A stretch of DNA of 64,000 nt, taken from assembly GCA_963753755.1 (NCBI GenBank), contig CAVWDM010000016.1:96381-160380 (forward strand), read 5' to 3'. The notes under the pieces are model-generated. The model saw only the letters and a list, made by a program, of their open reading frames with translations, made no database searches and was not told the origin of the DNA. The position numbers and the translations under genes were made by a program. Positions within the stretch are counted from its first letter, which is position 1. Each line of letters opens with the position of its first letter. Positions 25,600 to 44,650 of the stretch are shown in pieces. The DNA is from an uncultured Gammaproteobacteria bacterium. Its GTDB lineage: Bacteria; Pseudomonadota; Gammaproteobacteria; UBA9214.

Positions 25600-25620
25600 C
25601 GCGCGATCCACGTGGCCGTG

Positions 25621-26862: not shown

Positions 26863-26875
26863 GTAATGACACCCG

Positions 26876-28033
26876 TCAGGTACGGTACAACCAGTTGCGC
26901 AGTAATACCGGGACGAGGAGGGTGGTGATCAGGCTCATGAGTACCAGTGCGACATAAGCCGGTTGTTCGATCACGCCGCGATTCAACGCCAGCAGTGCGA
27001 TCACCATGGCTACCTCGCCACGCGGCGCCATGCCGACACCGATAATCATGCTCTCTCTGGTCGCGATACCGGTGGCGCGTGCGCTCAGGCCGCAGCCAAT
27101 AAATTTGGAAAGGAAGGCAACAACTGACAGTGCCCCGGCAAAGACCAGTGTTTCGGCGCCGAGGAAGCGTAAATCAGCGAGTACTCCAAGCGACACAAAG
27201 AACACCGCGCCAAACGCCGCGCGCACATAGCCTGCGCCGATATGTACGGACTGGCTTTTGTTGACATGGATGCCCTCGAAGACCACGCCGGCAACAAAGG
27301 CGCCGACAATGGCGGAAAGATGCAGGTATTCCGCTACCAGGGCATAGACAAATGCCGTCAGCAACCCGAGGACGAAGACAAACTCCGGTGACCGCACGGC
27401 CAGTTGCGAGGCATCGATCCGGGCAGAGAGCGGCGCGAGCAAGCGCTGTCCCAGCCAGGCGCCCACGCCGATGAACAGAATGGCCTTGATCGCCATCAGT
27501 GCAATCTCGACGGTATCGATGACCCCGCTGCCGAGTTGATCGACCATGGAGAGGGCCAGCAGGGCCAGCACGTCGTCAATCACCGCTGCGCCGATAATCA
27601 GCCTGGCCTCCGGCGACTGCAGTCGGCCCAGTTCTCGTAACGCATCGGCGGTGATGGCAATACTGGTGGCGCTCAGGGCGACGCCAATCAACAATGCGCG
27701 GTCGTTATCGAAACCAAACCACAGCGCGACCAGATAGCCAGTGAACCAAGGCACAATGATGCCCGCCACGGCAATGATAAAGGGGCGCATACTGGCCAGC
27801 TCGCGCGCGCGGAATTCCAGGCCGACGACGAACAGCAGCACAATGGCACCGAGGTGGGCAATATTGGCGACAAATGTTGTGTACGTAATCAAGCCGAAGA
27901 CGCTTGGCCCGACAATCAGGCCGGCCAGGATCTGTCCGACCACGGCAGGCTGGCGGACCAGTCCGGAGATCAGGTGCCCGGCCAGTGCAACTGCCAGTAA
28001 CAGGCTCATCTGGAATTCAATGGATTCGTGCAT
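26876..28033 (-). CDS. Cation:proton antiporter (CPA family), a tandem paralogue.
   Basis: Contains ILAGLIVGPSVFGL and LLFVVGLEF. Confidence 0.85.
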   Translation of the reverse strand: MHESIEFQMSLLLAVALAGHLISGLVRQPAVVGQILAGLIVGPSVFGLITYTTFVANIAHLGAIVLLFVVGLEFRARELASMRPFIIAVAGIIVPWFTGYLVALWFGFDNDRALLIGVALSATSIAITADALRELGRLQSPEARLIIGAAVIDDVLALLALSMVDQLGSGVIDTVEIALMAIKAILFIGVGAWLGQRLLAPLSARIDASQLAVRSPEFVFVLGLLTAFVYALVAEYLHLSAIVGAFVAGVVFEGIHVNKSQSVHIGAGYVRAAFGAVFFVSLGVLADLRFLGAETLVFAGALSVVAFLSKFIGCGLSARATGIATRESMIIGVGMAPRGEVAMVIALLALNRGVIEQPAYVALVLMSLITTLLVPVLLRNWLYRT

Positions 28034-28200
28034 TGACTGCTTGTCCCAGGGTAGTGATAGGCACCGGCCTCAGATTATAAATACCGGAAAAAGGGCGTTG
28101 CATACCCAAATAGCGACGGGAGTAGCTGTGCCCGGCGTGCTGTTGGGCTCAGGCATCATGGGTTACGGCACACAGGCAACACCATGGTATCTGCTTATAG

Positions 28201-29187
28201 TCATAACCATTTTTTTCTGTAGAAGATGATCAGCAGGCCGACCACGATGGCAAGCATCAGGCCGAGCAGGTTGTAATAGCCGGACGGTGAATGCAGTTCC
28301 GGCATGTTTTCAAAATTCATACCATAGATACCGGCGAGGAAACTCAACGGTACGAAAATAGCCATCACCACGGTCAGTACTTTCATGATCTGGTTGAGTC
28401 GATGCGAGGCAACCGATATATAGCCGTCAGCCAGGTCCGAGGCCATTTCGTAATAGAGACTGGCAAGGCTGCTGGCGCGTTCCTGTTGCTCATAGACATC
28501 GACGATTTGGTGATCATGTTGGTCTGCGATGGCGGGGTAGGTGCCGGATTTTAGTGCAGCGAAGACCTGCTGGTGGTAGAGAAATACCCGTCTGAATTTC
28601 TTCAGTTCGGTTTTGTAATTGAGTAGTTCTGCGAGTATCGTGTCGTCGGGATGTTCCATGATTTCGCTTTCCAGCGACTCCAGACGAGGTTCCAGTTTGA
28701 GCAGAATGTCGAGATAACGATCCACCAGCCTGCGGCACAGACGCAGCGCCAGTGTTGCCGGTCCGTCAGCTAAAATTTCTGCATTACTTGTTGCCTGATC
28801 GAACAGTGTATCGGTAATGGGTGATACGCCATTGCGCCGGGTCACCAGGAATCGATCGCCGATAAAGAGTGCCAGTTGAATGGTGGAAAAATGCAGGCTC
28901 TCGGAGTCGGCACTCAACGGCTTCAGCAGGATGAAGGTGGAAGCATCGAATGCCTCGATCTTGGGCGGATGACGCGATCGCTGCGCATCCTGGATTGCCA
29001 TGGGATGCAGGCCGAAACTGTCCTGCAGAAACCGGGCTTCCGTAGCATCGGGTTCTGCAGAACAATCGAGCCAGATACAGCTGTCCGCATTCTGCCGCCA
29101 GACGGCCACCAGTTCCTGTCCGCCGCTGATGACTTCGTTGCTCGACCTGTTATAAAGAAGTGTCCTGATCATGGCATGTTTCTCCAA
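28201..29187 (-). CDS. corA: CorA magnesium/cobalt transporter.
   Basis: C-terminal two TM segments with the YGMNF (GMN) motif. Confidence 0.9.
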   Translation of the reverse strand: MEKHAMIRTLLYNRSSNEVISGGQELVAVWRQNADSCIWLDCSAEPDATEARFLQDSFGLHPMAIQDAQRSRHPPKIEAFDASTFILLKPLSADSESLHFSTIQLALFIGDRFLVTRRNGVSPITDTLFDQATSNAEILADGPATLALRLCRRLVDRYLDILLKLEPRLESLESEIMEHPDDTILAELLNYKTELKKFRRVFLYHQQVFAALKSGTYPAIADQHDHQIVDVYEQQERASSLASLYYEMASDLADGYISVASHRLNQIMKVLTVVMAIFVPLSFLAGIYGMNFENMPELHSPSGYYNLLGLMLAIVVGLLIIFYRKKWL

Positions 29188-29280
29188 TTAATCGCCGGAT
29201 TGTCACATATAATTCCCTGCAAACGCGAGCGCCGGTCTCTATTGTCATTGTAGTGGTCCGCGGACCACCTCGCTTTGTTG

Positions 29281-30666
29281 CTATACCAGCAAATATGGCA
29301 TGAATAACGTCGCCAGGCTCAGTACCAGGAAGAAGCCGGCCATGTCTGTGACGGTGGTGAGCAGGGGACCCGATGCGACTGCGGGATCAACGCCAAAGCG
29401 CTTGAGCAGCAGGGGCACCGTGCCGCCGATGGACACGGCGATCACCGTATTGGCCGCCAGCGCCAGTCCAATCACCAGGCCGAGGTAGGGACTGCCTTTC
29501 CAGAGCCACGCCACGATGCCGATCATAATGCCCAGTACGATACCGTTGATCAGTCCGACACCGACTTCCTTCTTCCACACATGAAAAACATCAACAGGCC
29601 GGGCGAGTCCCAGCGCCAGTTCCCGCATGCTTACACCGACCGCCTGGTTACCGGAACAGCCGCTCATGTCAGAGACCATGGGAAGGAAAACCGCAATGGC
29701 GATGACTGCGGCCAGTGTTTCCTCGTAGGCCGAGATGACGCTGGCCGCGATGATATTCAGAACAATGTTCGAGCTCAACCAGGCCAGCCTGCGTCTGGAG
29801 CGAAACCAGGTGGGCATGGAGCGCAGTTCGTCGCTCATGCGCTGACGTGACAGGCTTTCCTGTTCGGATCGCTTCAGTGCGGCCTCTGCGACCGCGGCCC
29901 GTGAGACGACTCCCAGGGGAATGCCCTGCTCATCGACCACCGGCACGCCGAGGAACGGATGTTCCTCAAGCAGTTCTTCCAGAGCGTCCTGCGTCTCGTC
30001 TGGCATGACAGTCAGTGGTGCAGACATGATCTCTGCAAGGGCAGCTGCACGCCTGCTGGTCAGCAGGCTGCGCAAGGACACGACACCGACCAGTTTGCCG
30101 GTCTTGTCGATGACATACGGGTGCTGCCCGCGGTAACGCTCGAATTCCTCATCACCCTTCGCCAGGCGCGCCAGCACGGCACCGACTGTTTCAGAGGTTT
30201 GGAACGAGAAGATATCACTTTCCATGAGACCGCCGGCGCTGTCTGGCGGATACTCTGCAAGTTTTCGAACACTGGCAGCCTCGTCCGGGTCCATCTCGGA
30301 GAGAATGGCCTCGGCCTCATCCGGCTCCAGTTCAGTGACGATGTCAGCCTGGGTATCGCTCTGGAGCTCTTCCATGATCTTTGCCGCTACCGGTGACTCC
30401 AGACCCTCGATCAGGGAGGCAGCAAGGTTCTCCGGCGCCTCTTCAACCAGTGTGGCGGCCGCTTCCGGTGTAATCAGTGACACCACCCGGTCACGTTCTT
30501 CTGCATGCAGACGCGAGAAATGGCGCAGGGCGTCCTGGGTCGGGATCGATTCCATGATCTCGGTGAGCCGCTCGCCATCGGCATTTTCGAGCGCTTGATC
30601 TATGGCTTTCCTGACGTCCTTGTCTTCAGGGATCAGGTCGTCGGTATTATCAGCTGTATCTTTCAT
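29281..30666 (-). CDS. mgtE: MgtE magnesium transporter.
   Basis: MgtE_N helical domain, a CBS pair, and a TM domain (TVTDMAGFFLVLSLATL). Start trimmed to MKDTADN. Confidence 0.9.
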   Translation of the reverse strand: MKDTADNTDDLIPEDKDVRKAIDQALENADGERLTEIMESIPTQDALRHFSRLHAEERDRVVSLITPEAAATLVEEAPENLAASLIEGLESPVAAKIMEELQSDTQADIVTELEPDEAEAILSEMDPDEAASVRKLAEYPPDSAGGLMESDIFSFQTSETVGAVLARLAKGDEEFERYRGQHPYVIDKTGKLVGVVSLRSLLTSRRAAALAEIMSAPLTVMPDETQDALEELLEEHPFLGVPVVDEQGIPLGVVSRAAVAEAALKRSEQESLSRQRMSDELRSMPTWFRSRRRLAWLSSNIVLNIIAASVISAYEETLAAVIAIAVFLPMVSDMSGCSGNQAVGVSMRELALGLARPVDVFHVWKKEVGVGLINGIVLGIMIGIVAWLWKGSPYLGLVIGLALAANTVIAVSIGGTVPLLLKRFGVDPAVASGPLLTTVTDMAGFFLVLSLATLFMPYLLV

Positions 30667-30875
30667 GCGGTGTTTTTCCCTGTTGAAATATGCTGGTGAC
30701 GAATCGTTTCGTTCAATTGTGTAACGAAGTGATACGATGGAGTTGTGCACGGGATGCCCTTAGGCTTATTAATCCCGGCATTCGCTGGCTTCTTAGTGAT
30801 AGCGAAAAAGTGGATAGTATCAGCGCTGAGGTCGTGTGACACTCTCGTGTATATGCGCTTGACCATGAGAAATCT

Positions 30876-30912
30876 CCCGGACCCCGGACCCTCGACCCTG
30901 GACCCCGGAGCC
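30876..30912. repeat. Degenerate heptamer tandem repeat (CCCGGAC-like, 5 units) in the divergent Mg-transporter intergenic region.
   Basis: Sequence CCCGGACCCCGGACCCTCGACCCTGGACCCCGGAGCC. Confidence 0.6.
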
Positions 30913-30997
30913 AAAGGTCGGGTAAATGTTGAACGCGCCGGGCTGGGCTGTAATCACTACTGCGAGTGTAAATCCAGACCGGGCGGGCACTGGAAAA

Positions 30998-31063
30998 GTC
31001 ACAGTGCTGCACCGCGGTACCCCGGGTGAAATGCGATAAGACTGACATCAGCTGTGACTTTTT
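30998..31063 (+). promoter_or_regulatory. Structured 5' leader hairpin with a U-run, a candidate attenuator, ending 50 nt upstream of the CorC/CNNM gene.
   Basis: Stem AGTCACAG / CTGTGACT enclosing a GC-palindromic loop, followed by TTTTT. Confidence 0.3.
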
Positions 31064-31113
31064 CCTGTCATGCGGCGTCCAACCCTTAACCACACCAGGA
31101 ATAAACGGTTTTC

Positions 31114-32451
31114 ATGCCTTCACTCACTCTCAGTCTCGTTGCCGTAATAGTGTTGCTTGTCGCGAACGCGTTCTTCGTTGCCGCGGAGTTTGCGCTGGTG
31201 AAGGCGCGCGGTTTTCGCCTGGAAACTTACGCTATCGAGGGCAGTTCTGCCGCCAAGCTCACATTGCGAATCCAGCTGAATCTCGAGGCCTACCTGGCCG
31301 CCTGCCAGCTGGGCATCACCATGGCATCACTGGGTCTGGGTTGGGTAGGTGAACCTGCGGTTGCTGCCATTCTCGAACCGTTATTTCACAGCCTCGGTAT
31401 TCCGGAAACGATACTGCACACGGCAGCGTTCATGGCCGGTTTTCTGATTTTCTCGTCACTGCATATTGTTGTCGGCGAGCAGGTCCCCAAGACCTTTGCC
31501 ATACGCCGGGCCGAGCTCGTGTCGGTCTGGGTGGCGTATCCACTGCATATAGCCTATCTGATGGTGTATCCCCTCAACTGGTTGCTGAACCGTGCATCAC
31601 GGTCGATCCTGTCGATGTTCAATGTCGAGGAGGTATCCCACGCCGATGTGCTGAGTGGTGAGGAGCTGAAAGGACTGGTGGCTACCTCACGCGAGCATGG
31701 CGAGATTGAGCAGAACAAGGCGGATATGTTGCACAATCTATTCGAGTTCGATCAACGGCAAGTGGGTCGCGTGATGATCCCCCAAGGATCGATAAAAATG
31801 CTGGACTTGAGTAGCGATCCGGATCGCAATCTCGAAACAATACGCGACAGTGGCCACTCGCGATTTCCCGTCATCGACTCGGCCGCTGATGACAAGATTG
31901 CAGGAATCGTGCTTGCGAAGGATCTCTATACCGCGATGCTTTCAGGTAATCCGGAGCCCTGGCGTGACCTGAAGCCGTTTTGCCGTGAGCCACTGCTGGT
32001 GCCGGAAAGTCAGAAGATTGCACGCTTGTTCGATAGCATGCGTAGCAATCGCGCGCATATGACCTTTGTCGTTGATGAGTACGGTGAACTGGCGGGGATC
32101 ATAACCCTGGAAGATCTGCTTGAGGAGATTGTCGGTGAGATCCATGATGAAACCGATCCGGAAGAAGCGGCGTCACCCGTCATCGGCGTTGCCGAAGGAG
32201 AGTGGCTGGCGGATGGCATGACCACATTGACCGATGTGGAACGTGCCATAGGCCTCAAGGTCCCGCCCGAGATGGATGCCAACACCCTTTCAGGATTGTT
32301 TATGCTGCGACTGGCGCGCATGCCGGAGGTAGGCGATGCAATTGATGAAGCCGGATTCCGGCTTGTGGTGCAGTCGTTTGACGATCGTCGTGTCGGCGAG
32401 ATTGCTATCGCGAAGCTGGCGGATGTCGATGCACCGGGGTCGAACGACTAA
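31114..32451 (+). CDS. HlyC/CorC-family (CNNM) Mg2+/Co2+ transporter: DUF21, CBS pair, CorC_HlyC.
   Basis: DUF21 N-terminus (VANAFFVAAEFALVKAR), CBS domains, and the C-terminal transporter-associated domain. Confidence 0.9.
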   Translation: MPSLTLSLVAVIVLLVANAFFVAAEFALVKARGFRLETYAIEGSSAAKLTLRIQLNLEAYLAACQLGITMASLGLGWVGEPAVAAILEPLFHSLGIPETILHTAAFMAGFLIFSSLHIVVGEQVPKTFAIRRAELVSVWVAYPLHIAYLMVYPLNWLLNRASRSILSMFNVEEVSHADVLSGEELKGLVATSREHGEIEQNKADMLHNLFEFDQRQVGRVMIPQGSIKMLDLSSDPDRNLETIRDSGHSRFPVIDSAADDKIAGIVLAKDLYTAMLSGNPEPWRDLKPFCREPLLVPESQKIARLFDSMRSNRAHMTFVVDEYGELAGIITLEDLLEEIVGEIHDETDPEEAASPVIGVAEGEWLADGMTTLTDVERAIGLKVPPEMDANTLSGLFMLRLARMPEVGDAIDEAGFRLVVQSFDDRRVGEIAIAKLADVDAPGSND

Positions 32452-32495
32452 CGGCTGGTCATTTTGAGCCTGCGCAGCTTGTTGTGATGAAACGA

Positions 32496-33380
32496 CTAAC
32501 TGATCACTTGGCCAGCGTTACCGGTCCCGCCAGTATTAATACCGTCTTGTTTGAAGAGCTCCAGACATTTGTCGATCAACCCGGTTTTTGCACCGCGCAA
32601 CGGATAGATGGCAGAGACCGGTCGTTCGATTGCGGGGGCATCAGGTACCCGGTGCAGCCGGCCGCTGAGAAGGTGCCCGGTGACCAGCGGTGCCGGCAGA
32701 TAGGCGAATCCCCCGAGTTCGAGCAGGTGGGCGAGCGCCATTGTCGACTGCGAGACCCTGACCTGGGGTTCCGGTGCATCGGGGAACAGTCGCCGATGCT
32801 CCAGCGCATGGGCAACACCCCAGTCCACCATCAGGTACTCGTCGGCCAGTGCTGCCTCTGTACTTGCGATCGGGCGGCTGCCCACCAGCAGCAGTTCGAT
32901 TACACCCACTGCTGAGATCTGCAGGACTTCCAGGTTGGGCGGCTCAACCATGAATGCCAGATCGAGTACTCCATCGAGCAGGCGTCGTGTCAGCTGCTCG
33001 GCAGGCAGTGACTCGGCGATGATCGCCAGCTGCGGCTGCTGCCGGCGCAGTCGGTGAAACCAGTCCTGCAATATGATGTCCCATAGCCGCAGGGTGCCAC
33101 CCGCGCTGAGCTGCTGGCGTGCGCCGCCAGGCGCCACTTCCTGCCGCGCCTTGCGCCACTCGGCGATCAGCAGGTCAGCATGGTTCAGCAGCCGGTTTCC
33201 CTCCGGGGTAAGGCGAATATCGCGGCGCAGACGGTCGAACAGGCGCACCCCGAGGATGCTCTCGAGCTGTTTGATGCGGGCGCTGACCGCTGCCTGGGTG
33301 AGGTTCAGGGCCTGTGCCGCATTGCCAAAATGCCGGGTGCGGTTGACTTCGAGAAAGGTACGTAGCAGTTCCAGATCCAT
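32496..33380 (-). CDS. LysR-family transcriptional regulator.
   Basis: N-terminal HTH (MDLELLRTFLEVNRTRHFGNAAQALNLTQAAVSARIKQLE). Confidence 0.9.
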   Translation of the reverse strand: MDLELLRTFLEVNRTRHFGNAAQALNLTQAAVSARIKQLESILGVRLFDRLRRDIRLTPEGNRLLNHADLLIAEWRKARQEVAPGGARQQLSAGGTLRLWDIILQDWFHRLRRQQPQLAIIAESLPAEQLTRRLLDGVLDLAFMVEPPNLEVLQISAVGVIELLLVGSRPIASTEAALADEYLMVDWGVAHALEHRRLFPDAPEPQVRVSQSTMALAHLLELGGFAYLPAPLVTGHLLSGRLHRVPDAPAIERPVSAIYPLRGAKTGLIDKCLELFKQDGINTGGTGNAGQVIS

Positions 33381-33509
33381 GCCGCGATTATGATAAAAAT
33401 AAATTTAATATTCTACAAATATATATAGTTATATTTGTCGAATTGCGACTCCTATAGTGCGCCTTCTGAATACGCGGCCTTTTGTTTGGCCGGGAGAAGG
33501 TGGCGATAG

Positions 33510-34130
33510 ATGGACAAGTCGAAAGGCAATTCTGCACTGCATGCGAGTCCTGCAAACTACGCGTTGCGTGACGATGCGGAACTGGTAGCGCTGGTGCGCC
33601 GGCGCGGCCTTGGCTGGAAAGTCGCCCTCGATGCACTGCTGGACCGTTACCGCAGCTGGATTTTCAATTTCTGCCTGCTGCGCCTGGGTAATCACCATGA
33701 TGCGCAGGATGCCACGCAGGAAGTGGTGATCCGCGTATGCAATGCGATTGTCCGCTTTGAAGGACGCTCTGCCTTCAGGACCTGGCTGTACAGGATCTGC
33801 GAAAACCAGTGCCGCACTTTCGCCGTCAGGCGTGCACGCTATGTTCAGGTGGAACACATCGAGGCGCTGATCGATCTTGGGCGTGATGATCTTGCCCTGC
33901 CACAGTCCGATGCCGTTTCTGACAAACAGACAGTGACCGTGATTCTGGACAGCGTTTCTCCCCAGGCACGCGAAGTCCTGCAACTGCGGTTCTTCGAGGA
34001 TCGATCTCTGGACGATATAGCCGGCTCGCTGGATATCAGCCTGAGTGCGGCGAAGATGCGACTCTACCGGGCCCTGGATCAGTTCAGGGCACGCTATCTT
34101 GAGCTGGTGGGGTTGCCACACGTCACCTGA
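33510..34130 (+). CDS. ECF-type RNA polymerase sigma-70 factor.
   Basis: Region 2 (DAQDATQEVVIRV, RTWLYRIC) and region 4 (DIAGSLDISLSAAKMRLYRALDQFRARY). Confidence 0.85.
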   Translation: MDKSKGNSALHASPANYALRDDAELVALVRRRGLGWKVALDALLDRYRSWIFNFCLLRLGNHHDAQDATQEVVIRVCNAIVRFEGRSAFRTWLYRICENQCRTFAVRRARYVQVEHIEALIDLGRDDLALPQSDAVSDKQTVTVILDSVSPQAREVLQLRFFEDRSLDDIAGSLDISLSAAKMRLYRALDQFRARYLELVGLPHVT

Positions 34131-34243
34131 ATCCTGTCAGTGTATCGCGGCACGCAATCAAGCACATCTTCAAGACAGCGCGCTGTGACTTTTTTGCTGC
34201 TTTGAAGGTCTGATTGTCTCGAATGGATTGATTGATAAAAAGG
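34026..34243 (+). repeat. Direct repeat copy A, covering the 3' end of the ECF sigma gene and its downstream region.
   Basis: About 80-90% identical to 36776..37030. The core GCTGGATATCAGCCTGAGTGCGGCGAAG(A/G)TGCGACTCTACCGGGCCCTGGATCAGTTCAGGGC is nearly identical in both copies. Confidence 0.8.
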
Positions 34244-34392
34244 GCGTCTACACTTGCGAAAGCTGATTACACGCATGCGGAGTGCAAAATGCACCCTGAA
34301 CCTTGTGCGCTGTGATTACCAGGGAAAGGACACATAATATTCATGCACGGTCCTGTGCGTTAACCAGTTCTCAACCGAAGGTGGATACAAGC

Positions 34393-36222
34393 GTGCTGAA
34401 AAAAATTCTGCTTCCTAGCATTCTACTGGTGCTTGCCTATGGCTTCTGGGTAAGCCCCAACTTCAAAGCCATTGCCGCCGGCGTCGCCATTTTTCTGTTC
34501 GGCATGTTGTCCCTGGAGGAGGGGTTTCAGGCCTTCACTGGCGGGGCCCTTGACCGGATACTGAAGCGCACCACATCGTCTACCGGAAAGAGTGTGATGT
34601 TCGGTATCGTGAGCACATCGCTGATGCAGTCCAGTTCGCTGGTCTCGGTGATTACAATCTCCTTTCTCAGCGCCGGACTCATCACCCTGACCGCCGGTAT
34701 TGGCATCATCTTCGGTGCTAACCTGGGGACCACGACAGGGGCCTGGCTGATCGCCGGATTCGGTCTCAAGGTCAACATCGCCGCCTATGCTATGCCTCTG
34801 CTGGTGTTCGGTGTGGTCCTGATATTCCAGTCGTCGAAGTCGCTCAAGGGTATCGGCTATATCCTGGCGGGACTGGGGTTCCTGTTTCTCGGCATTCACT
34901 ACATGAAGGAGGGCTTTGAGACCTTCAAGGAAACCATCAATCTGGCCGAGTACGCGGTCTCCGGGTATACCGGGGTGCTGCTGTTCACGGCCATCGGCAT
35001 CTTCGCCACTGTCGTGATGCAGTCCAGCCACGCCACCCTGGTATTGATTATCACCGCACTTGCAGCCGGGCAGATTACCTATGAGAATGCGCTGGCGCTG
35101 GCTATCGGCGCCAATGTGGGTACCACGATCACCGCGATCCTGGGGTCCATGAGCGCCAACGAGGCGGGCAAACGCCTGGCGGTAGCGCACCTTGTCTTCA
35201 ACGTGGTGACCGGCGCACTCGCTATCGTTTTCATCTATCAGCTGGTTGATCTCGTGAACGGAGTATCGGCCATGGTAGGGATCGCGAACGATGACCACAC
35301 CCTCAAGCTGGCCGTGTTCCACTCGATATTCAACCTGCTCGGTATCGTCGTGATGCTGCCACTGCTGAATAAGCTGGTTGTCTGGCTGGAGAAAATTCTC
35401 CCGGAGAAGAAACCCGAAGTGGACCAGCCGATATACCTGTCAGAATCTTCGGCGGCGTTTCCTGGCACAGCGCTGGAGGCGGTCCGCCTGGAGACCTTGC
35501 GGGTGTACGAGGCGGCAGTGCGCATCATTATTGACGGGCTCGGCATGAAGCAGGCTGACATACTCTCCACTGTTGATCTGGAGCAAGTGGTTGCGACCCA
35601 GACTCAGGTACACCAGTTCGACATCAACGCGATGTACGAGAGACATATCAAGGGTATTTACAGCGCCATCGTAGCCTTTATCAGTGACACCGCGTTTTCC
35701 CGCCGGGAAGAACAGTCAGCCAGCCTGCAGTGGCTCAGGGAAGCGAGCACTCACCTGGTGGAGGCGGTAAAGGATACCCGGCAGCTGCAGAAGAACCTGA
35801 TATATTATACGGGTTCGGAAAACCGGAATATGCGCGAAGCCTACAACCGGGTCCGGGTGCAGATCGGACTGATCATCCGTGACCTGGAGGAGATGCGTGC
35901 CTCTGGCGGCGGGGTGATGGATGTTCTGTCGCTGGACGGTCTGAAACTGCTGGTGGAAGAGGACCAGAAACGTATCAACCAGACCATGACCGAACTGATT
36001 GGCAAGCGTATTATCACCCCGGAAATGGGATCCTCGCTGATCAACGACAGCGTGTTTGCGCGCGATATTTCCATGAACCTGATCCGCGCTGCACAGACTC
36101 TGTTCGTGGCGGGTGAACAGGATTTGACTCAGGCAGCACACGATATCGTGCTGGACGAGAGCGATCTTACACAGATAGCCGGGCAGATTGTCACGGAGAA
36201 ACCCGAACAGGTAAGCCACTAG
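34393..36222 (+). CDS. Na/Pi-cotransporter family protein (NptA/YjbB-like) with a C-terminal PhoU-like domain.
   Basis: Probable GTG start after an AAGGTGGA RBS. Na_Pi_cotrans motifs (QSSSLVSVITISFL, GANLGTTTG, QSSHATLV, GANVGTTIT). Confidence 0.85.
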   Translation: MLKKILLPSILLVLAYGFWVSPNFKAIAAGVAIFLFGMLSLEEGFQAFTGGALDRILKRTTSSTGKSVMFGIVSTSLMQSSSLVSVITISFLSAGLITLTAGIGIIFGANLGTTTGAWLIAGFGLKVNIAAYAMPLLVFGVVLIFQSSKSLKGIGYILAGLGFLFLGIHYMKEGFETFKETINLAEYAVSGYTGVLLFTAIGIFATVVMQSSHATLVLIITALAAGQITYENALALAIGANVGTTITAILGSMSANEAGKRLAVAHLVFNVVTGALAIVFIYQLVDLVNGVSAMVGIANDDHTLKLAVFHSIFNLLGIVVMLPLLNKLVVWLEKILPEKKPEVDQPIYLSESSAAFPGTALEAVRLETLRVYEAAVRIIIDGLGMKQADILSTVDLEQVVATQTQVHQFDINAMYERHIKGIYSAIVAFISDTAFSRREEQSASLQWLREASTHLVEAVKDTRQLQKNLIYYTGSENRNMREAYNRVRVQIGLIIRDLEEMRASGGGVMDVLSLDGLKLLVEEDQKRINQTMTELIGKRIITPEMGSSLINDSVFARDISMNLIRAAQTLFVAGEQDLTQAAHDIVLDESDLTQIAGQIVTEKPEQVSH

Positions 36223-36235
36223 TGGAGCAGTATCA

Positions 36236-36484
36236 ATGAAAAGAAAAAGGCTGTTGAAGACACTGGGCGATTTGCTCGACATGGAAGGACGCAAGCAGCG
36301 TAAACACCGTGATGAGTTGAAGGCGCTGCTGAAAAAGCTCAAGAAAAAGGAAGTCGAGTTAAAAGCAAAGATGCAGCTGGAGAAAAATGAGCGCAAACAA
36401 AAGCGCCTGGGAAAGGAGCTCGAGATTATCAAGGCCCAGCGCACGAAAGGGGTGATGACCCTGCGGGGTCTCAAGGTGTCCTGA
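36236..36484 (+). CDS. Small Lys/Glu-rich coiled-coil protein (82 aa), hypothetical.
   Basis: GGAGCAG RBS. Sits 13 nt after the Na/Pi gene stop. Highly basic and low complexity. Confidence 0.4.
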   Translation: MKRKRLLKTLGDLLDMEGRKQRKHRDELKALLKKLKKKEVELKAKMQLEKNERKQKRLGKELEIIKAQRTKGVMTLRGLKVS

Positions 36485-36775
36485 GTGTGCCGGCACGGGG
36501 CCTGACGTGTGCTGGTCAGGATCACTTCACCGGGGCATAAGAGGGGTCGGATCCCTCAATCGAACGCCATTATTGATCTGCTGGGCTATCCGTGGACGGC
36601 CAAAACACGGGTTGAGTCGTTTCGGTTCGACGATGACCCGGATGAGTTCAGGTGATGGCCCTTTGGGCAGGGCCTCCTGCCTTTTAGGGATGACAGAATA
36701 CAGCCGTCGGTACTTTCGCTGCTTGAACAGGCGGTGGAACCTCAACAGCGTAGATGGCCGGATAATGACGGCAGC

Positions 36776-36982
36776 CTGCTGGATATCAGCCTGAGTGCGG
36801 CGAAGGTGCGACTCTACCGGGCCCTGGATCAGTTCAGGGCTCGCTATCTTGAGCTGGTAGCGGATGCCACACATAATCTGAGTCATGACGGGCAACCCAC
36901 TCGGCCTTACCCCCGGATCAACATTCAACGCCACCCTGCACTGCAAGGCATCGAACACTTATTTTCAGACGGTGTTATGTGA
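36776..36982 (+). pseudogene. Remnant of sigma-70 region 4 (a fragment of the ECF sigma factor duplicate).
   Basis: Translates to LLDISLSAAKVRLYRALDQFRARYLELV, matching the C-terminus of the 33510..34130 product. There is no region 2 and no proper start. Confidence 0.6.
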
Positions 36983-37030
36983 CTTTTCTGCGGCTTCGCA
37001 GGTCTGATAATCCCGACTAGAGAAAAACCT
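36776..37030 (+). repeat. Direct repeat copy B, a diverged duplicate of the sigma-factor 3' region.
   Basis: See copy A. It carries an internal insertion of about 50 bp relative to A. Confidence 0.8.
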
Positions 37031-37099
37031 CAATAATCGCCAGTTACTCGACCTGCAAGGTGCAGATAGACACGGTCTGGCAGAGACAGGAGTCCTGAT

Positions 37100-38020
37100 A
37101 TGAAAATTGCCATCTTATCCAGAAATCCAAAGTTGTATTCAACGCAACGATTGGTTGAAGCGGCGCAGCAACGAGGTCACGAGGTTCGTGTACTGGACGT
37201 GCTACGTTGCTACATGAACATCGCAACTCACAAGCCACAACTGCACTATAAAGGCGTGGCACTTGAGGATTTTGATGCCGTCATACCGCGTATAGGTGCT
37301 TCGGTCACATTCTATGGTGCCGCTGTGCTACGCCAGTTTGAGATGATCGGCGTGCTGCCACTGAACGAATCGGTCGCCATTACGCGCTCCCGGGACAAGC
37401 TGCGGTCCCTGCAACTGCTATCGCGGAAAGGTGTCGGTTTGCCATTAACAGGCTTTGCTCACAAACCTGACGACATCAAGGACCTCATCAGAATGGTTGG
37501 TGGTGCGCCACTGGTCATCAAACTGCTGGAAGGCACACAGGGAATCGGCGTGGTACTTGCCGAGACCCACCAGGCCGCGGAAAGCGTGATCGAGGCCTTT
37601 ATGGGATTGCGTGTCAATATCCTGGTTCAGGAATTTATCGCAGAGGCGGGCGGTGCCGATCTGCGCTGTCTGGTGATTGGTGACAAGGTCATTGCGGCGA
37701 TGAAACGCCAGGGAAAAGAGGGGGAGTTCCGCTCGAATCTGCATCGGGGTGGATCGGCAAGCCTGATCAAGATTACGCCTGAAGAACGGTCCACTGCCGT
37801 GAGGGCTGCACAAACGATGGGCCTCAATGTCGCAGGTGTCGATCTGCTACGTTCAAATCACGGGCCTGTGGTGATGGAAGTTAACTCATCACCGGGCCTG
37901 GAAGGAATCGAGTCGGCAACAGGAAAGGATATTGCGGGCACTATCATACAATTTCTCGAGAAACGTCAAAGCGAGCTCGCTGGAAAATCAAGCGGAACAC
38001 GCACCCGCGGAAAAGGCTGA
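37100..38020 (+). CDS. rimK: RimK-type ATP-grasp ligase (ribosomal protein S6 glutamate ligase family), an orphan paralogue.
   Basis: [29 protein letters not shown]... with a high fraction of residues identical to the 59574..60479 paralogue by eye. AGGAG RBS. Confidence 0.9.
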
Positions 38021-38461
38021 TGAACATACCGAGGCAGACTGGTTCTGGCCTGGCAGGCGTTTCGCGAAGGAATATCTGGTTAATTCGTCATTCCGGGCGG
38101 AGCGCAGCGCAGACCCGGAATCCAGTTGTTGCTATTCAATCTGTTACTGGATTATTCGTTGCGCTCACCCTGTGGGCGTTCAACGCGCTACGCGCTTTTC
38201 TCCGCTATGCACCGGAACCACGAATGATGAATTAAACAGACCCACCTTGACAGCTGCAGAATGTAACTCGTTCCTGACGTCCTTATCTCAGGAGTTATGT
38301 CACCCGTGTTATCAGCTGTATCTTCCATGAAAATCATTACCTGTTGATTTTGTGTTCATCTGCCAGATCCATGGCGGAGTTGCATCCCTGCAGAGTATGA
38401 AGCACGTTGTAATCGGGGTTTGTAATAATATATCTTCTTTAGGAAAGTGAATCACTGCCAG

Positions 38462-40663
38462 ATGAAGCATGCAGCTGACGCTGGCCCGCAAAAAGCCGGG
38501 GTTGCATGCGTGAAAACATTGTTTGGAATCCTGCTGCTGGTGTCACTCGTCTCACTGGTGAGTGCTGCTGACCAGCTACCGGTAAGCATCCCCCTGAATA
38601 TCGAGTTCAGCTTCCTGCAACAGGCACTGCGCAGGCAGTTATACACGGGGCAAGATCAGGCAATGGACATTCGGGTTGACGACCAGGGCTGCAGCAGGAT
38701 TAGACTGTCTGATCCACGTATCGACGGCCAGCAAGGTCTGCTACGCATTACCAATCGAACCGTCGTTGACGTCGGTCTGCCTATGGGGTCCAAGTGTATC
38801 CCCGTGTACCAGTGGTCAGGCACAGTTGAAACCTATCACAAACCACGAATTGCTAGTGGGCGCACCGCTTTGCGTTTTGAAATTATTGATGCGAATGCGT
38901 ACAGCGCAGACATGACACCGCTTAATCAGGGCCGCGAATTTGAATTGCTCAAGCAGTTTGCCGGGCCCCGGCTTTCGGATTTGCTCATCGATTTGCAGCC
39001 TGTGCTTGCTGCAATCAGGCAATTGCTGCCCGAGGTCATCCCGGAAAGCAATATCGCAACAACCAAGACAATACTGAATTCACTGTCGTTCACGACAGCC
39101 GCTGTAAACCCGGAATCCCTGGAGCTGATGCTGGAGTTCTCGGCAGGCAATAACCCGCCTGTGAAAAGGTTTGAGCCGCCGCTGACGAAAGTGGAGCTGG
39201 ATCGCTGGGAACAAACTTCCAGGCAATGGGATGCCTTTCTCACTTACACGGTTAAACAGATTGCCACCCGGAGTAAATCCGATGCCGTTAGAGAGGCGTT
39301 GCTGAATCTACTGATTGAGGCGCGCTACGACATACTCATGGCGTTATCAGACACCGCGACCCAGGATGACCCGGTCAGGCGAATGTTTGTCAACGCCTGG
39401 AGTCGACTCGCGCCGCTATTGAGCGAGGTATCTGATGATCTGCAAGGTGACTTGCCGCTGCAATATATGACATTTATAGCCGCTGGCGACATGTTGCAGG
39501 TACTGGAGAGGCTGGGACCTGACATTGGTCTGGAGATTACAGCAGGTGGTCTGCGGCGTTGGGCGCGCATGCTGGTGCCTGATGACAGTGTTGACCCACT
39601 GGAATACAGCCAGGAGGTTGATCCTGCGTTGCGAAGATTGTTTGGTTTTGGTCCGCCGGAGTCGACCGAAGAGCAGATTCCTGCTGATACACTATCCTGG
39701 TTCATAAAATCCGCACGTGCGTCGATCGACAGCGCAGCATTACGGAACAAGTTGAAAAACTGGGTGCCGGCTCGCAACGAGATCGGTGAATACCTGTCAC
39801 TGGTCCATCAGTTACTGAGCGAAACCACGAACAACACGATTAACCGGGAGAAGCTGGATTCGTTATACAGGAAACAATATCACGATATGTTACTGGCAAC
39901 TGCATGGCAGGAAAGTTGCTGGCGCCAGTTCATTAGAACGGACAAGGGTATTAAACCGATCACATCAGGCACCGGCTCTGTCGGCATCATGCAGGTAAAC
40001 CGAAAAGTCTGGCGCGGGTTATATGATGCAGGAAAACTGGAAACAGATATTGCCTATAACGCAGGTGCGGGTAGCCAGATTCTGCTGCATTACTTCAAGG
40101 ATTATGCCCTGAAAAATGAACTTGGCAAGAGTAAGGTTGCTGACAGTCTTGCGCGAGCCACCTATGCGGCCTACAACGGAGGTCCGCGACAGCTCGCACG
40201 TTACCGTGATTCCACTACCCCGGAACGGCTGCGAAAAATAGATGTGTCGTTCTGGGAAAAGTATGAAAAGATCAAAAGCGGAGATATCAAATCCGTCGCA
40301 GGCTGCTATGGAGAAACGGCGGGCGCTGTAATGGTGAACAGCCCGCCAGTGAAAAGCAATAAAACGAAGGAATCTGCCGGCCGCCCAACCGGGCTGTTAC
40401 AGTCTGGTCCGGATAATTACACTATCCAGTTGATGTCATCAAGAAACAAGGCACAGATGGAAAAATACATTCAGGAGAACAAACTTGCCGGTAAAGCCGA
40501 GTATTATACTTACCGGCATAATAACGAAACCTGGTATGGACTCGTTTACGGTAGCTTTGCTACCCGCGCTGCTGCCGAGGCCAGGGCGCAATCCCTGAAA
40601 AAATCCATGGGCCTGTCCGGAACATGGGTGCGTCAAATATCGAGCATTGAAAAGCTGGAATAA
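38462..40663 (+). CDS. Exported lytic transglycosylase (SLT domain) with a C-terminal SPOR peptidoglycan-binding domain.
   Basis: SLT motifs (AWQESCWRQF, GIMQVN, AYNAGAG, AAYNGGP). The C-terminal YTIQLMSSRNKAQMEKYI...WYGLVYGSFATRAAAEA is SPOR-like. Start ambiguous (38447, 38462 or 38510). Confidence 0.8.
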   Translation: MKHAADAGPQKAGVACVKTLFGILLLVSLVSLVSAADQLPVSIPLNIEFSFLQQALRRQLYTGQDQAMDIRVDDQGCSRIRLSDPRIDGQQGLLRITNRTVVDVGLPMGSKCIPVYQWSGTVETYHKPRIASGRTALRFEIIDANAYSADMTPLNQGREFELLKQFAGPRLSDLLIDLQPVLAAIRQLLPEVIPESNIATTKTILNSLSFTTAAVNPESLELMLEFSAGNNPPVKRFEPPLTKVELDRWEQTSRQWDAFLTYTVKQIATRSKSDAVREALLNLLIEARYDILMALSDTATQDDPVRRMFVNAWSRLAPLLSEVSDDLQGDLPLQYMTFIAAGDMLQVLERLGPDIGLEITAGGLRRWARMLVPDDSVDPLEYSQEVDPALRRLFGFGPPESTEEQIPADTLSWFIKSARASIDSAALRNKLKNWVPARNEIGEYLSLVHQLLSETTNNTINREKLDSLYRKQYHDMLLATAWQESCWRQFIRTDKGIKPITSGTGSVGIMQVNRKVWRGLYDAGKLETDIAYNAGAGSQILLHYFKDYALKNELGKSKVADSLARATYAAYNGGPRQLARYRDSTTPERLRKIDVSFWEKYEKIKSGDIKSVAGCYGETAGAVMVNSPPVKSNKTKESAGRPTGLLQSGPDNYTIQLMSSRNKAQMEKYIQENKLAGKAEYYTYRHNNETWYGLVYGSFATRAAAEARAQSLKKSMGLSGTWVRQISSIEKLE

Positions 40664-40695
40664 AACGATGAGGTAAAGCGAGCAGGGGCGCTGCG

Positions 40696-40968
40696 TTGTC
40701 ATTGACAATGGGCAGGAAACATCACAGCAGTCATAATAAACAAGCAGGTGATCATCACGGACGACTGCGATTCCTCGAGGACGTTTACAGCCGTGATGGG
40801 GCTCAGCTGGAGTCGGATGCTGACAAGTATTGTCTTGACGTACAGCCAGGCCAGTGCCGTATTGTGAACCGCATAAGTGTCAATAAACCCAATGTCAGTA
40901 AAGTATGTACCCGTGAGTTGATGGTGGACAGGATACAAACATTACGTGAGCCTGGAACTGGTCGCTAA
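40696..40968 (+). CDS. Hypothetical small His-rich protein.
   Basis: ORF only. It lies in an AT-rich segment and has no recognisable motifs. Confidence 0.2.
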   Translation: MSLTMGRKHHSSHNKQAGDHHGRLRFLEDVYSRDGAQLESDADKYCLDVQPGQCRIVNRISVNKPNVSKVCTRELMVDRIQTLREPGTGR

Positions 40969-41120
40969 AAAACAATGTAGATTGAAGGGTTCGGTAGTAC
41001 ACGGTTAGCAGAAAAATGTACCGCTTACCTCGGCAACTACCGAGTACGGCCATAGTGCACATCATAAAATAATACCAATGAACGTCCGTAAATCTGATAC
41101 GTTCCAAGACCTGATTCGTG

Positions 41121-41615
41121 CTAGACACACTCATCCGTCTTGGGATATTTCTCCCGTACTCGGCGAATTCTCTCATCTATCTTGTTTTGTTCGGCCTTAT
41201 TCCCCTGACGCGCTTGGTATGCAGCTGCGAGTTGTTCCTCTACACTCGGGTACTCCATCCGCCTCATGGCGGCATATTTTTGCTCGTGGCGAACATCCGT
41301 GATTTCCCGCAGGGCGGATTTGATCTCTTTGTCGGTAGGTCGATTTGTGTTGGCTATCCATTCTGCGATATACGGTTCCTGCTCCGGAGAATCGTGCCTG
41401 ATGACATAGTCAACGCCCGCTGTAAGATTCGGGTTCAGCATGTGTATGGCACGGCAAAGCGTACGTGCACGCTCATCGTGCCCGACAAGCCCCTGTTGTT
41501 GTGCAATCAGCATGATGGCATCCTTGGTTCTTCGAGAATTCTTCCACAGAATGTATATAAAGACGCATGCAACTATCAGCACCAAAATAACAATATTAGT
41601 GACTCCTTTGTCCAT
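41121..41615 (-). CDS. Hypothetical membrane-anchored protein (N-terminal TM segment plus a soluble domain of about 130 aa).
   Basis: The ORF sits in the AT-rich islet. TM helix IVILVLIVACVFIYILW. Confidence 0.5.
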   Translation of the reverse strand: MDKGVTNIVILVLIVACVFIYILWKNSRRTKDAIMLIAQQQGLVGHDERARTLCRAIHMLNPNLTAGVDYVIRHDSPEQEPYIAEWIANTNRPTDKEIKSALREITDVRHEQKYAAMRRMEYPSVEEQLAAAYQARQGNKAEQNKIDERIRRVREKYPKTDECV

Positions 41616-41990
41616 GATGTGTTGTTCCTCTGGTGTTTGGTTTACATATGTTATTGCAAGAAGCTTTAAACGATGCCCCGTAATTAAACATTACCCGCTT
41701 GTTTCGCAAAAGGCCAGCTGAAAGCGAACGTCAGTGTCTGCCCGGTTGCGGAGTTACTTGCGGTCCAACTATTTTTTCAATGCAGATTGCTGTTGAGTAA
41801 ATAAACGGAATCAACCAGCCTGCTGCAGCCCTTCATGGACGAACAACGTATGGTAAGTTACTGCTCATCTCAATTATATAATTCTACAGAATGTGATTTA
41901 TATATGCTTTTCGCCTTTGTAATAGCCACCTGGCAATTGTATTCATGATGGAAATGATTACCAAAAATAATAAGAACGATTATTGATAGG

Positions 41991-42419
41991 GTGGTAGATG
42001 CAGTATTCGGAATTATACTTTTATTCATTATTCTTGGTGTTGCAATTGGGACGATACAGCATTTTTCGACAACATGGAGATTATTGGCATTAGTAGGAAT
42101 CACCGGCCGCTATACTGATCTCATTGCCGATGTGTTGACGCTCTATGTGTTCATTGAGTCATTCAGATCACTCATTGCGTATTTCAGTACACGAAAATCT
42201 CGACCTGCTTTTATACTGGATGCCGCAATTGTGTTCGTTATTCGCGAAATCCTGATTGCACTTTTTAAGCATGAGCTTGAACCAGAAAGGCTTTACGCAT
42301 CTTCAGCGTTTATAGTTCTACTTGGTGCGCTGCGGATAGGATCTGTTCTGGTGTACAACAATAATACTGTATTTCACATCAAGTCGGTATCTGACGCTGC
42401 ATATGCTCCGACTATATAA
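41991..42419 (+). CDS. PsiE-like small inner-membrane protein (phosphate-starvation-inducible family), tentative.
   Basis: About 140 aa with 4 TM segments. The hydrophobic pattern resembles PsiE. Confidence 0.5.
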   Translation: MVDAVFGIILLFIILGVAIGTIQHFSTTWRLLALVGITGRYTDLIADVLTLYVFIESFRSLIAYFSTRKSRPAFILDAAIVFVIREILIALFKHELEPERLYASSAFIVLLGALRIGSVLVYNNNTVFHIKSVSDAAYAPTI

Positions 42420-42688
42420 GCATCGCGCCTTCATCGAACGGTTATAGTGTCGGTGATACGAAGCACTTGGTCTCTATGATATTCTCTGCAGACTCATTAA
42501 TCCCTATACGCGGATGGCCGGAACCGTGATGAATTCTCTTTTTTTGATGCTTGGCGTGACCTCGCGTAACGTTGGTGGTGAAGCATTGATACGAGGCGCG
42601 TTGGCTGCTGCAAGGCGACTCGGTATTTCACCATTGCTGAGTGGTCTCCTTATTGTAGGCCTCGGCACATCACTTCACTGAATCAAAG

Positions 42689-43894: not shown

Positions 43895-44003
43895 CCGATT
43901 GCTGGCAGTGTTTCAGTCGAAGTTTGGTGGTTCCTCTATTTGTGGTCGGGTAACCAGCCGTTTCATGATAAAGTCCAGGGGTATCTATACAGAGGGTCCG
44001 TTT

Positions 44004-44561
44004 ATGTATGACTATTCAATTTTGCACAAGGATGCAATCCAGTATGTTGTCTACCGACTGCTATTGGGATTGCTGGCACTCTCGGTGGTTAACACCGCAT
44101 TCGCGGAAGCTGATGCTGCCTTGCAGGCGCGCATTGAGTCCCAGGTGCAGCATGAGCCAGTGCTTGATGGAACCGCTGTCAGGATTATCTCCGCTGCCGG
44201 TCATGTGGTGCTGAGCGGCCAGGTCAGGCTGCTTTCGCAAAAGATGCTTTATGAACAGATTGTCTGGAAGACAGGGGGAACCGTCGATGTTGGTAGCGAA
44301 ATCCGGGTTGTGCCTGCTGCACCGGTTTCGGATCAATCACTGGAAGCACAAATACTCGTGCTGGTGCATGCGCATAAACGATTTGAAGATATTGATGTGA
44401 GTGTGAAAGAAGGGCTCGTTTCCCTGCAGGGTACTTTCGAAAGTGCAGCGGATGTGTTGTTTCTGAAATGGCAGATTGCTGAGATCGAAGGTGTTATTCG
44501 TATCTTGTTTGAATCACGTATTGTTGCACAGGTTCAGGCGTACGATACTGTGCAAAGGTAA
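44004..44561 (+). CDS. BON-domain protein (OsmY-like, two BON domains).
   Basis: AGAGGG RBS. Signal peptide. Repeated BON-like segments (VSVKEGLVSLQGTFES...). Confidence 0.7.
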   Translation: MYDYSILHKDAIQYVVYRLLLGLLALSVVNTAFAEADAALQARIESQVQHEPVLDGTAVRIISAAGHVVLSGQVRLLSQKMLYEQIVWKTGGTVDVGSEIRVVPAAPVSDQSLEAQILVLVHAHKRFEDIDVSVKEGLVSLQGTFESAADVLFLKWQIAEIEGVIRILFESRIVAQVQAYDTVQR

Positions 44562-44650
44562 TGCCTCGATCAACTTCATTTTCGGGCAGACTGCATACGT
44601 AGCGTAAGGTTCTCACGGGATTGACTCATGGACTAACCATAGACACCAAC

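Follow-up and report, generated by a model that had tools for sequence, protein, structure and literature searches.

Direct repeats that flank an insert are the classic product of Campbell-type integration, and DDE transposases make target-site duplications of a few bp. Homology-facilitated illegitimate recombination (HFIR), reportedly described in 2002 both by de Vries and Wackernagel and by Prudhomme and colleagues, is said to occur in naturally transformable bacteria such as Acinetobacter and Streptococcus pneumoniae. The locus we investigated lies in a stretch of 64,000 nucleotides (the window) from an uncultured Gammaproteobacteria bacterium (contig CAVWDM010000016.1, positions 96,381 to 160,380). 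In this window the 3' end of a gene for an extracytoplasmic function (ECF) sigma factor, together with a promoter-like motif, recurs in front of the gene rimK, and a Na/Pi cotransporter family gene (NaPi) lies between the two copies. On balance we favor the interpretation that this arrangement is an old structural variant that arose by duplicative insertion through illegitimate recombination, and that it is not an active mobile element. All of its components, the scar of illegitimate recombination, the debris of an insertion sequence (IS), the ECF promoter and the flexible islet, are of known kinds; the locus is a tidy example and not a new category.

The locus resembles HFIR products in that one side lies in homologous DNA (the LysR-sigma region), the other is a microhomology join of a few nucleotides, and foreign or ectopic DNA lies between them. 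However, HFIR products usually delete recipient DNA, whereas here about 245 bp are duplicated. As in Campbell integration, the insert stands between direct repeats of a homologous segment that are partly reciprocal; unlike in Campbell integration, the open reading frames (ORFs) that were scanned encode no circular replicon or integrase functions, the core of the second repeat is not donor-like, and an illegitimate join is still needed. A scrap at the right-hand junction is homologous to the N-terminal helix-turn-helix (HTH) region of IS481-family transposases, but it is an internal fragment of about 74 codons without ends and without a DDE domain, and thus debris. Haplotypes with and without the cassette, flanks that are 92-100% identical and sharp identity breakpoints are reminiscent of flexible genomic islets, presence/absence cassettes that homologous recombination in conserved flanks exchanges between genomes; here, in contrast, a gene end and a promoter, both duplicated, enclose the insert, and its cargo changes place inside a single conserved neighborhood (CNNM, LysR, sigma and rimK). 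The motif in the repeat fits the AlgU consensus, the sigma factor is SigX-like, and the motif precedes OmpA-like genes in two relatives, which recalls AlgU/RpoE- and SigX-type promoters and the sigX-oprF pair of Pseudomonas. It differs from these in having TGAC and not GAAC in its -35 element, and its link to the sigma factor is a predicted one. The features on which the argument draws are the following (window coordinates):

32496-33380, minus strand: LysR gene (ORF and profile searches)
33510-34130, plus strand: intact ECF (SigX-like) sigma-70 family gene (Pfam Sigma70_r2 and Sigma70_r4)
34028-34227, plus strand: copy A, comprising the 34 final sigma codons plus stop (core 34028-34108, tail 34109-34136) and the A-type spacer with its promoter block, 34173-34227 (alignments)
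34184-34213, plus strand: motif TGTGACTT-N17-GTCTGA in copy A, about 180 nt upstream of NaPi (sequence match)
34393-36222, plus strand: Na/Pi cotransporter family gene, GTG start, 609 aa (Pfam Na_Pi_cotrans, NCBIfam Na_Pi_symport)
36236-36484, plus strand: orf82, a Lys-rich ORF of 82 aa, 3' partner of NaPi (tblastn across related loci)
36501-36520, plus strand: hairpin CCTGAC-N8-GTCAGG 3' of orf82, conserved in the window, L164 and L082 (alignment)
36562-36786, minus strand: internal scrap (225 bp, about codons 70-143) of an IS481-like DDE (rve) transposase gene (protein and nucleotide homology)
36778-37021, plus strand: copy B, an orphan sigma 3' stump (core 36778-36858, frameshifted tail 36859-36887) and the B-type sigma-rimK spacer with its promoter block, 36967-37021 (alignments)
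36978-37007, plus strand: motif TGTGACTT-N17-GTCTGA in copy B, about 95 nt upstream of rimK, conserved in L001, L002 and L164/L081
37100-38020, plus strand: rimK, an ATP-grasp ligase gene (Pfam RimK and Rimk_N)

Copies A and B form a direct, imperfect repeat with an offset of 2750 bp. A repeat search returned them as one pair of 106 nt (34003-34108 and 36753-36858, spacing 2750) and a second pair of 55 nt (34173-34227 and 36967-37021, 75% identity, spacing 2794). In a gapped local alignment 79 of the 81 core positions are identical (34028-34108 versus 36778-36858), in exact shared runs of 28, 34 and 17 nt, and the tail that follows agrees at 21 of 28 positions (34109-34136 versus 36860-36887), with an insertion of 1 nt in copy B. 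The alignment score of 168 lies far above that of 200 shuffled sequences (19.7 +/- 2.6, maximum 28), which confirms the direct repeat at the sigma 3' end that a first-pass annotation, made by a model from the DNA letters, had reported. Its estimate of 80-90% identity with an indel of about 50 bp was roughly right, at the low end: the copies agree in about 79% of all aligned columns (157/199) and in about 70-75% outside the core, and a stretch of 43 nt is present in copy B only, appearing as a gap in copy A in a four-way alignment. Beyond this stretch the similarity resumes in the promoter-like block (40/54) and ends at about 34227 and 37021. Copy B has an abrupt start at 36778 and reads LLDISLSAAKVRLYRALDQFRARYLELV in translation until the sigma frame is lost; it is the orphan sigma fragment that it had been taken for.

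Close relatives were found by a sigma-protein scan that used one genome per species. The two that it returned, L001 and L002, have sigma proteins 93% and 91% identical to that of the window and are about 90% identical to it at the nucleotide level. In both, some 210 nt separate the sigma gene from rimK, which comes next. L002 is collinear with the window over 30897-34133 and 36778-38061, and L001 from 31360, where its contig starts, to 34133 and again over 36778-38027. A single segment of 106 bp in L002 (4054-4159) aligns with both window copies, and L001 is likewise single-copy. Since the sigma gene stands directly before rimK in these relatives, with one copy of the segment, the interior of the window locus represents, in comparison with them, an insertion. 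Up to and including the sigma stop codon copy A is orthologous to L001 and L002, beyond it copy A is A-type, as in L082, L164 and L166, and copy B is collinear with L001 and L002 from 36778 into rimK. The arrangement without the cassette, which the first-pass annotation had proposed to look for, is also found in L167/L168 (sigma 76% aa identity) and in L004 and L005 (52-56%); to judge from this spread, the sigma-rimK adjacency would be the deep ancestral state.

The right-hand junction retains a trace of how it may have formed. A minus-strand peptide at this position had been dismissed as probably spurious and no transposase had been recognized, yet the peptide has 30 protein homologues besides the window ORF P0001 (51-71% identity, E down to 1e-18) and is a genuine scrap of an IS481-like transposase gene that forms the junction with copy B. 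Some of the homologues are named 'putative transposase' or carry PF13565, rve/rve_3 ORFs follow them in their own contigs, and IS481 is the best-matching family. At the nucleotide level the scrap is homologous to L161/L162 from 36786 down to 36562 (70-76% identity), and the part of IS481-like rve transposases to which it corresponds is the N-terminal HTH region. It was identified by the large protein search alone: the minus-strand ORF matched no Pfam or NCBIfam family, an rve domain included, and the peptide had no match among the plasmids of PLSDB. The scrap has neither IS ends nor a catalytic domain, and both of its ends lie inside the transposase coding sequence. A second IS copy, as in a composite transposon, was not found in the 64-kb window by tblastn of the scrap or by self-blastn, and the repeat search of the window revealed no inverted repeat bracketing scrap or cassette.

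Scrap and copy B meet at 36777/36778-36786, where they share a microhomology of 4-8 nt. On the minus strand, sigma sequence ending in GGCTGATATCCAGC gives way to transposase sequence starting (ATTCAGC)GGGCTGCCGT, and the overlap is 4 nt if exact or 7 of 8 positions. The location of this join inside both coding sequences suggests that it was made by illegitimate recombination and not by transposition; it bears the signature of a microhomology-mediated join between the inside of a transposase gene and the inside of the sigma gene. A public protein of 119 aa, P0001 (NCBI, ENA), matches the window exactly at 36530-36886 on the minus strand; this 'hypothetical protein' is a chimera of the antisense sigma stump and the transposase scrap, and most likely an annotation artefact that the present analysis flags.

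Further haplotypes came from a metagenome scan with the NaPi transporter and from look-ups of close sigma homologues. L164, which is 99.6% identical to L081, has the order mgtE (minus strand), CNNM, LysR (minus strand), sigma, NaPi, orf82, about 430 nt, and rimK, and is 89% identical to the window over 29287-36650 and 91% over 36820-38061. L164 and L081 share the junction haplotype of the window (about 89-93% nucleotide identity), including the transposase scrap, with copy B partly deleted and decayed. They lack window positions 36651-36819, and this deletion of 169 bp sits between two 18-nt look-alikes, GACCCGGATGAGTTCAGG (36636-36653) and GCCCTGGATCAGTTCAGG (36822-36839). A deletion so placed indicates that both derive from a window-like structure, and that the junction predates the split of the lineages. 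In L165 and L166 the sigma gene is likewise followed by NaPi, and a Logan contig of 2.3 kb, the one match of a rimK look-up, has the spacing of the window; exact look-ups of the sigma protein of the window and of P0001 yielded no contig. The more distant L082 (sigma 75% aa identity, 84% nucleotide identity overall) is collinear with the window over 32490-36527, comprising LysR, sigma, spacer, NaPi and orf82, and its spacer is A-type, including the 43-nt gap.

The spacers fall into two groups. A-type spacers (window, L164, L166 and L082) are 77-88% identical among themselves and B-type spacers (window, L164/L081, L001 and L002) 78-92%, whereas the two types are 54-66% identical to each other, and both are about 50-56% identical to the spacer of L167. 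This places the duplication after the split from the L167 type, and before or around the split from L082. The event is thus of old date and was no recent hop of the cassette. The first-pass annotation had proposed the insertion of a cassette with duplication of the target region: the insertion and the duplication are upheld, with the corrections that the event is old and that its two junctions may have separate origins.

Even among very close lineages, alleles with and without the cassette occur side by side. On the left, from CNNM and LysR through the sigma gene to a point 3 nt beyond its stop codon, L164 matches the cassette-free L001 at 95%; right of the cassette, its identity is 96% to the cassette-free L002 and only 86% to L001. 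L081 and L002 are 59-68% identical over the stump and the proximal spacer (36823-36942), and 92-100% identical beyond about 36940. These jumps in identity reveal that the haplotypes of this presence/absence polymorphism coexist in very close lineages and are mosaics. A recent excision that turned an L081/L164-like allele into L002 was considered and rejected on account of their low identity (59-68%) over the stump and the adjoining part of the spacer. L001 and L002 have the architecture of A on the left and B on the right, yet L002 does not appear to derive from L164/L081 by recombination between the repeats, and for the suggestion that the repeats mediate excision or amplification we find no evidence. 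Given the exact runs shared by the A and B cores, a RecA-dependent deletion between them is conceivable; it would yield a sigma factor with the altered C-terminus of copy B.

Both copies carry the ECF-type promoter-like motif TGTGACTT-N17-GTCTGA, a conserved part of the duplicated segment that the first-pass annotation had missed. The AlgU-type consensus is quoted as GAACTT-N16/17-TCTNN, and that of SigX is not precisely defined (PMC7641640); the motif fits the former, apart from the -35 element already mentioned. Its core pattern, TGACTT-N16-19-GTCT, has three occurrences in the 64-kb window (0.30 expected), one each before mgtE, NaPi and rimK, and 64 in 1.84 Mb of related loci (10.5 expected). 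The third window motif, on the minus strand, lies about 310 nt ahead of mgtE (core 30976-31001; as TGTGACTT-N16-GTCT, 30976-31003) and is conserved in L164; it is conserved in L002 as well, where the gene behind it is not mgtE but one for a 148-aa lipoprotein. In a looser form the motif precedes NaPi in 11 of 75 loci (1.0 expected) and rimK in 8 of 30 (0.3 expected), and 11 of 80 loci have it on the downstream side of the sigma gene. The spacers of the motif before NaPi and rimK in other loci are unrelated, and in L031 and L009 the OmpA-like genes that it precedes adjoin the sigma gene. Upstream of the sigma gene itself it was found in only 5 of 79 loci (1.35 expected); a look-alike at about 33445-33470 in the window, whose spacer is 4 nt too short, was not taken for an autoregulatory motif.

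Sigma-70 promoter and terminator scans returned matches at chance level. An Rfam search of 28000-42000 gave no match at E <= 1, and thus no riboswitch or leader RNA accounts for the conserved spacer block. A conserved -35/-10 pair at fixed spacing, enriched upstream of sigma-adjacent genes, is what characterizes an ECF promoter and is observed here, and we infer that the motif is the cognate promoter of the sigma factor. The similarity between A and B stops about 15 nt past the -10 element, which suggests that the cargo was placed essentially at the predicted transcription start. The duplication probably left NaPi-orf82 and rimK each with a predicted promoter of its own.

Under the interpretation of a duplicative insertion, the ancestral order would have been the ECF sigma gene, a spacer of about 210 bp with the TGTGACTT-N17-GTCTGA promoter, and rimK. 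In an ancestor that the window shares with L164/L081, and probably with L082, a block would have lodged just downstream of the promoter; this block would have consisted of the NaPi-orf82 module, with its leader, two genes and terminator-like hairpin, and of a piece of an IS481-like transposase gene that was dragged along. About 245 bp upstream of the insertion point, comprising sigma codons 173-206, the stop codon and the promoter, would have been duplicated simultaneously. One microhomology-mediated illegitimate join together with homologous pairing in the LysR-sigma region could have achieved this, either in an HFIR-like manner or by a switch of the replication template. Copy A would have remained the working end of the sigma gene and supplied a promoter to NaPi-orf82, while copy B would have become a dead stump that keeps the original promoter before rimK. 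Later, homologous recombination in the flanking genes may have shuffled the haplotypes, with tracts ending where homology breaks, at the sigma stop codon and at about 36940. The locus would then represent a clean, dated example of how an operon neighborhood can be rewired: cargo is placed behind a promoter, and the duplication of promoter and gene end would let old and new genes keep their expression. Current understanding is not overturned by this.

Several observations weigh against this interpretation. No copy B is found in L082 in the approximately 350 nt from orf82 to the end of its contig, where an inverted CNNM gene is located. The sigma-NaPi junction can thus occur without copy B, which implies that the two junctions need not be the product of one step and leaves the polarity unproven; the first-pass annotation had named the same arrangement without a second sigma fragment as the finding that would speak against it, and L082 comes close to this within the sequence available after orf82. 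The core of copy B has diverged from A by only 2.5%, although the event predates lineages that are 7-16% diverged, and the stump remnant of L081 is about 21% diverged from copy B of the window. The low divergence requires the added assumption, which these values suggest, that B was subject to gene conversion from A or was refreshed by recombination with cassette-free alleles. In addition, L001 harbors a remnant of orf82 about 2.9 kb downstream of rimK, and in L031 and L009 NaPi-orf82 itself is found downstream of rimK; the module may have been a neighbor before the event, which favors an intragenomic rearrangement over an import. Finally, the function of the promoter and its dependence on the sigma factor rest on sequence and are putative.

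The lack of copy B in the available sequence of L082 would be accounted for if the polarity were reversed. In this scenario sigma-NaPi-orf82 with the IS existed first, a cassette-free sigma-spacer-rimK segment was later joined inside the IS and left its 3' stump there, and as a last step homologous recombination replaced the resident sigma gene by an L001-like allele up to the stop codon. The A-type junction of L082 fits such a history, as do the similarity of the B core, spacer and rimK to L001 and L002 (90-98%), and the switch from L001-like to A-type sequence exactly at the stop codon. We nevertheless consider this history unlikely, because it needs at least two more recombination events, because the sigma-rimK adjacency appears to be deep ancestral, and because the contig of L082, which ends about 350 nt past orf82 at the inverted CNNM gene, may be secondarily rearranged on its right side.

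The reciprocal appearance of the copies, with A composed of the resident sigma end and a diverged spacer and B of a diverged tail and the resident spacer, is what a Campbell-type single crossover would leave behind, if a circle carrying a homologue of the sigma 3' end and promoter, NaPi-orf82 and the IS scrap had integrated near the sigma stop codon and produced reciprocal hybrid repeats. Such an integration is distinctly unlikely, however. The core of copy B has none of the eight L082 substitutions (0/8) and is A/L001-like, so that a diverged donor of the kind suggested by the A-type spacer is unsupported for B and an L082-like donor is rejected; no replication, integrase or plasmid function was recognized among the ORFs scanned in and around the insert; and closure of the circle would itself call for that illegitimate join.

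The orf82 remnant of L001, and the location of NaPi-orf82 beyond rimK in L031, L009 and L083, are also compatible with a larger tandem duplication by unequal or illegitimate crossing-over that included the sigma 3' end, rimK, intervening genes, NaPi-orf82 and the IS, with rimK and the intervening genes subsequently lost from the first copy and NaPi from the second. The junction between IS scrap and sigma stump does resemble the joint of a tandem duplication. However, three events are needed of which no relative shows an intermediate, and the spacers would initially have been identical, whereas their divergence is uneven, with about 26% in the promoter block, about 40% in a region of 105 nt, a 43-bp deletion, and 2.5% in the core; we regard this origin as very unlikely. 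Transposition of NaPi-orf82 into the sigma-rimK spacer by an IS481-like element or composite transposon is scarcely tenable, as the only trace in its favor, the transposase-gene scrap at the right junction, is about 225 bp of gene interior with no IS ends, catalytic domain or second copy in the window, and the flanking duplication of 200-245 bp is far longer than the target-site duplications of DDE transposases and has its junction inside coding sequence.

The sigma protein of 206 aa matches Sigma70_r2 (E = 5.6e-15) and Sigma70_r4 (E = 3.7e-11), scores above the cut-off of TIGR02937, and is 91-93% identical to its counterparts in L001, L002 and L164; sigma-70 regions 2 and 4 only, in a protein of about 200 aa, make it an ECF sigma factor, and its best NCBIfam match is SigX, with a score below the cut-off. 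NaPi matches PF02690 in two stretches (E = 5.6e-49), corresponding to two Na_Pi_cotrans repeats, is above the cut-off of NF037997, and is 95% and 91% identical at the protein level to its homologues in L081 and L082. The first-pass annotation had described the content of the interior correctly as a Na/Pi gene, a Lys-rich ORF of 82 aa and non-coding DNA, but its assignment of a PhoU part to the transporter is not borne out: Pfam is silent on PhoU, the C-terminal domain of YjbB/NptA-type cotransporters, in the C-terminal 270 aa (residues 340-609), even at E <= 1. In tblastn searches orf82 directly follows NaPi in most of the loci L081-L120, and neither Pfam nor NCBIfam assigned it to a family. 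The module's native 3' end lies just beyond the hairpin, at about 36527, where the homology to L082 stops. Pfam detected no integrase or other mobility domain in 13 ORFs (26876-43894), and no tRNA was found in 25000-45000; the locus thus lacks the integrase and tRNA of an integrative island within the scanned regions, and its repeats consist of a gene end and promoter and are not att-like.

In relatives the NaPi-orf82 pair is kept as a unit in varied slots around CNNM, LysR, sigma and rimK (L009, L031, L083, L091, L092 and L094). It follows rimK in L009 and L083, stands between CNNM and LysR in L092 and L094, and is found about 3 kb past rimK in L031. The remnant in L001 (6624-6792) comprises the 3' two-thirds of orf82, is 78% identical to the window at the nucleotide level and lies beside a hipA-like gene, which suggests that the module was once located at another site in the neighborhood. 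L009 and L083 are among the relatives that have two rimK genes near the sigma gene. The window has a second rimK paralogue as well, at 59574-60479, which is about 72% identical to 37100-38020 in nucleotides and is flanked by ORFs of 156 and 370 aa.

A second, outer direct repeat concerns mgtE (29281-30666, minus strand). The first approximately 58 nt of this gene, including the ATG (30608-30667), recur at 38271-38329 on the minus strand with 82% identity, and the alignment score for this 5' end is 63 (19.9 +/- 2.4 for shuffled sequences). The orphan mgtE piece is closest to the mgtE gene of the window itself and not to that of L164, and it lies about 210 nt beyond position ~38061, where the synteny with L001, L002 and L164 stops downstream of rimK. 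Insertion of the whole block 30668-38270 into mgtE is contradicted by the adjacency of CorA and CNNM in L003 and L006-L008, and of mgtE and CNNM in L164, which indicates that the orphan piece is the ectopic one. L002 contains an orphan internal fragment of the sigma gene at 242-476 (234 bp, residues 45-122), 94.9% identical to its own sigma gene 3.2 kb away. This fragment sits exactly at the junction where mgtE was replaced, and is a further case of a gene fragment that fills a breakpoint.

Three such filler copies were observed, the sigma stump at 36778, the mgtE 5' end (60 bp, 38271-38329) and the 234-bp sigma fragment of L002. One might speculate, and we consider this rather improbable, that ECF promoters act as fixed sockets whose cargo (NaPi-orf82, rimK, mgtE or the lipoprotein gene) is swapped by template switching or illegitimate recombination, leaving ectopic filler at the breakpoints. 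If this were the case, then the duplicated sigma end with its promoter would represent the recurrent product of a promoter-preserving process that rewires the ECF regulon, and not a one-off scar.

The sigma gene is located in a cluster of ion-transport genes (window 26876-32451) that includes a Na/H exchanger, CorA, MgtE and CNNM/CorC, and MgtE-like and CorA-like genes adjoin homologous sigma genes in many loci (L012-L014, L031, L036 and L076). This genomic context hints that the sigma factor may be linked to Mg2+ or phosphate homeostasis. The motif-bearing genes outline a candidate SigX-like ECF regulon in uncultured marine or sediment Gammaproteobacteria, comprising mgtE, NaPi-orf82 and rimK and, in relatives, CNNM and OmpA-like genes; such a regulon would link the transport of Mg2+ and phosphate with RimK.

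Two further sequence features were observed in the window. Just beyond the end of the synteny downstream of rimK, a hairpin-forming inverted repeat, ATTCCGGGC...GACCCGGAAT, occupies 38079-38114 and may be a REP-like (repetitive extragenic palindromic) element or a terminator. At 963-1178 and 1200-1415, within the ORF 782-1768, there is a tandem duplication of 216 bp with 91% identity, whose translated units (...QQALQ.QGFDPGPADGLWGSKTEQAVRGFQ...) look like a peptidoglycan-binding repeat.

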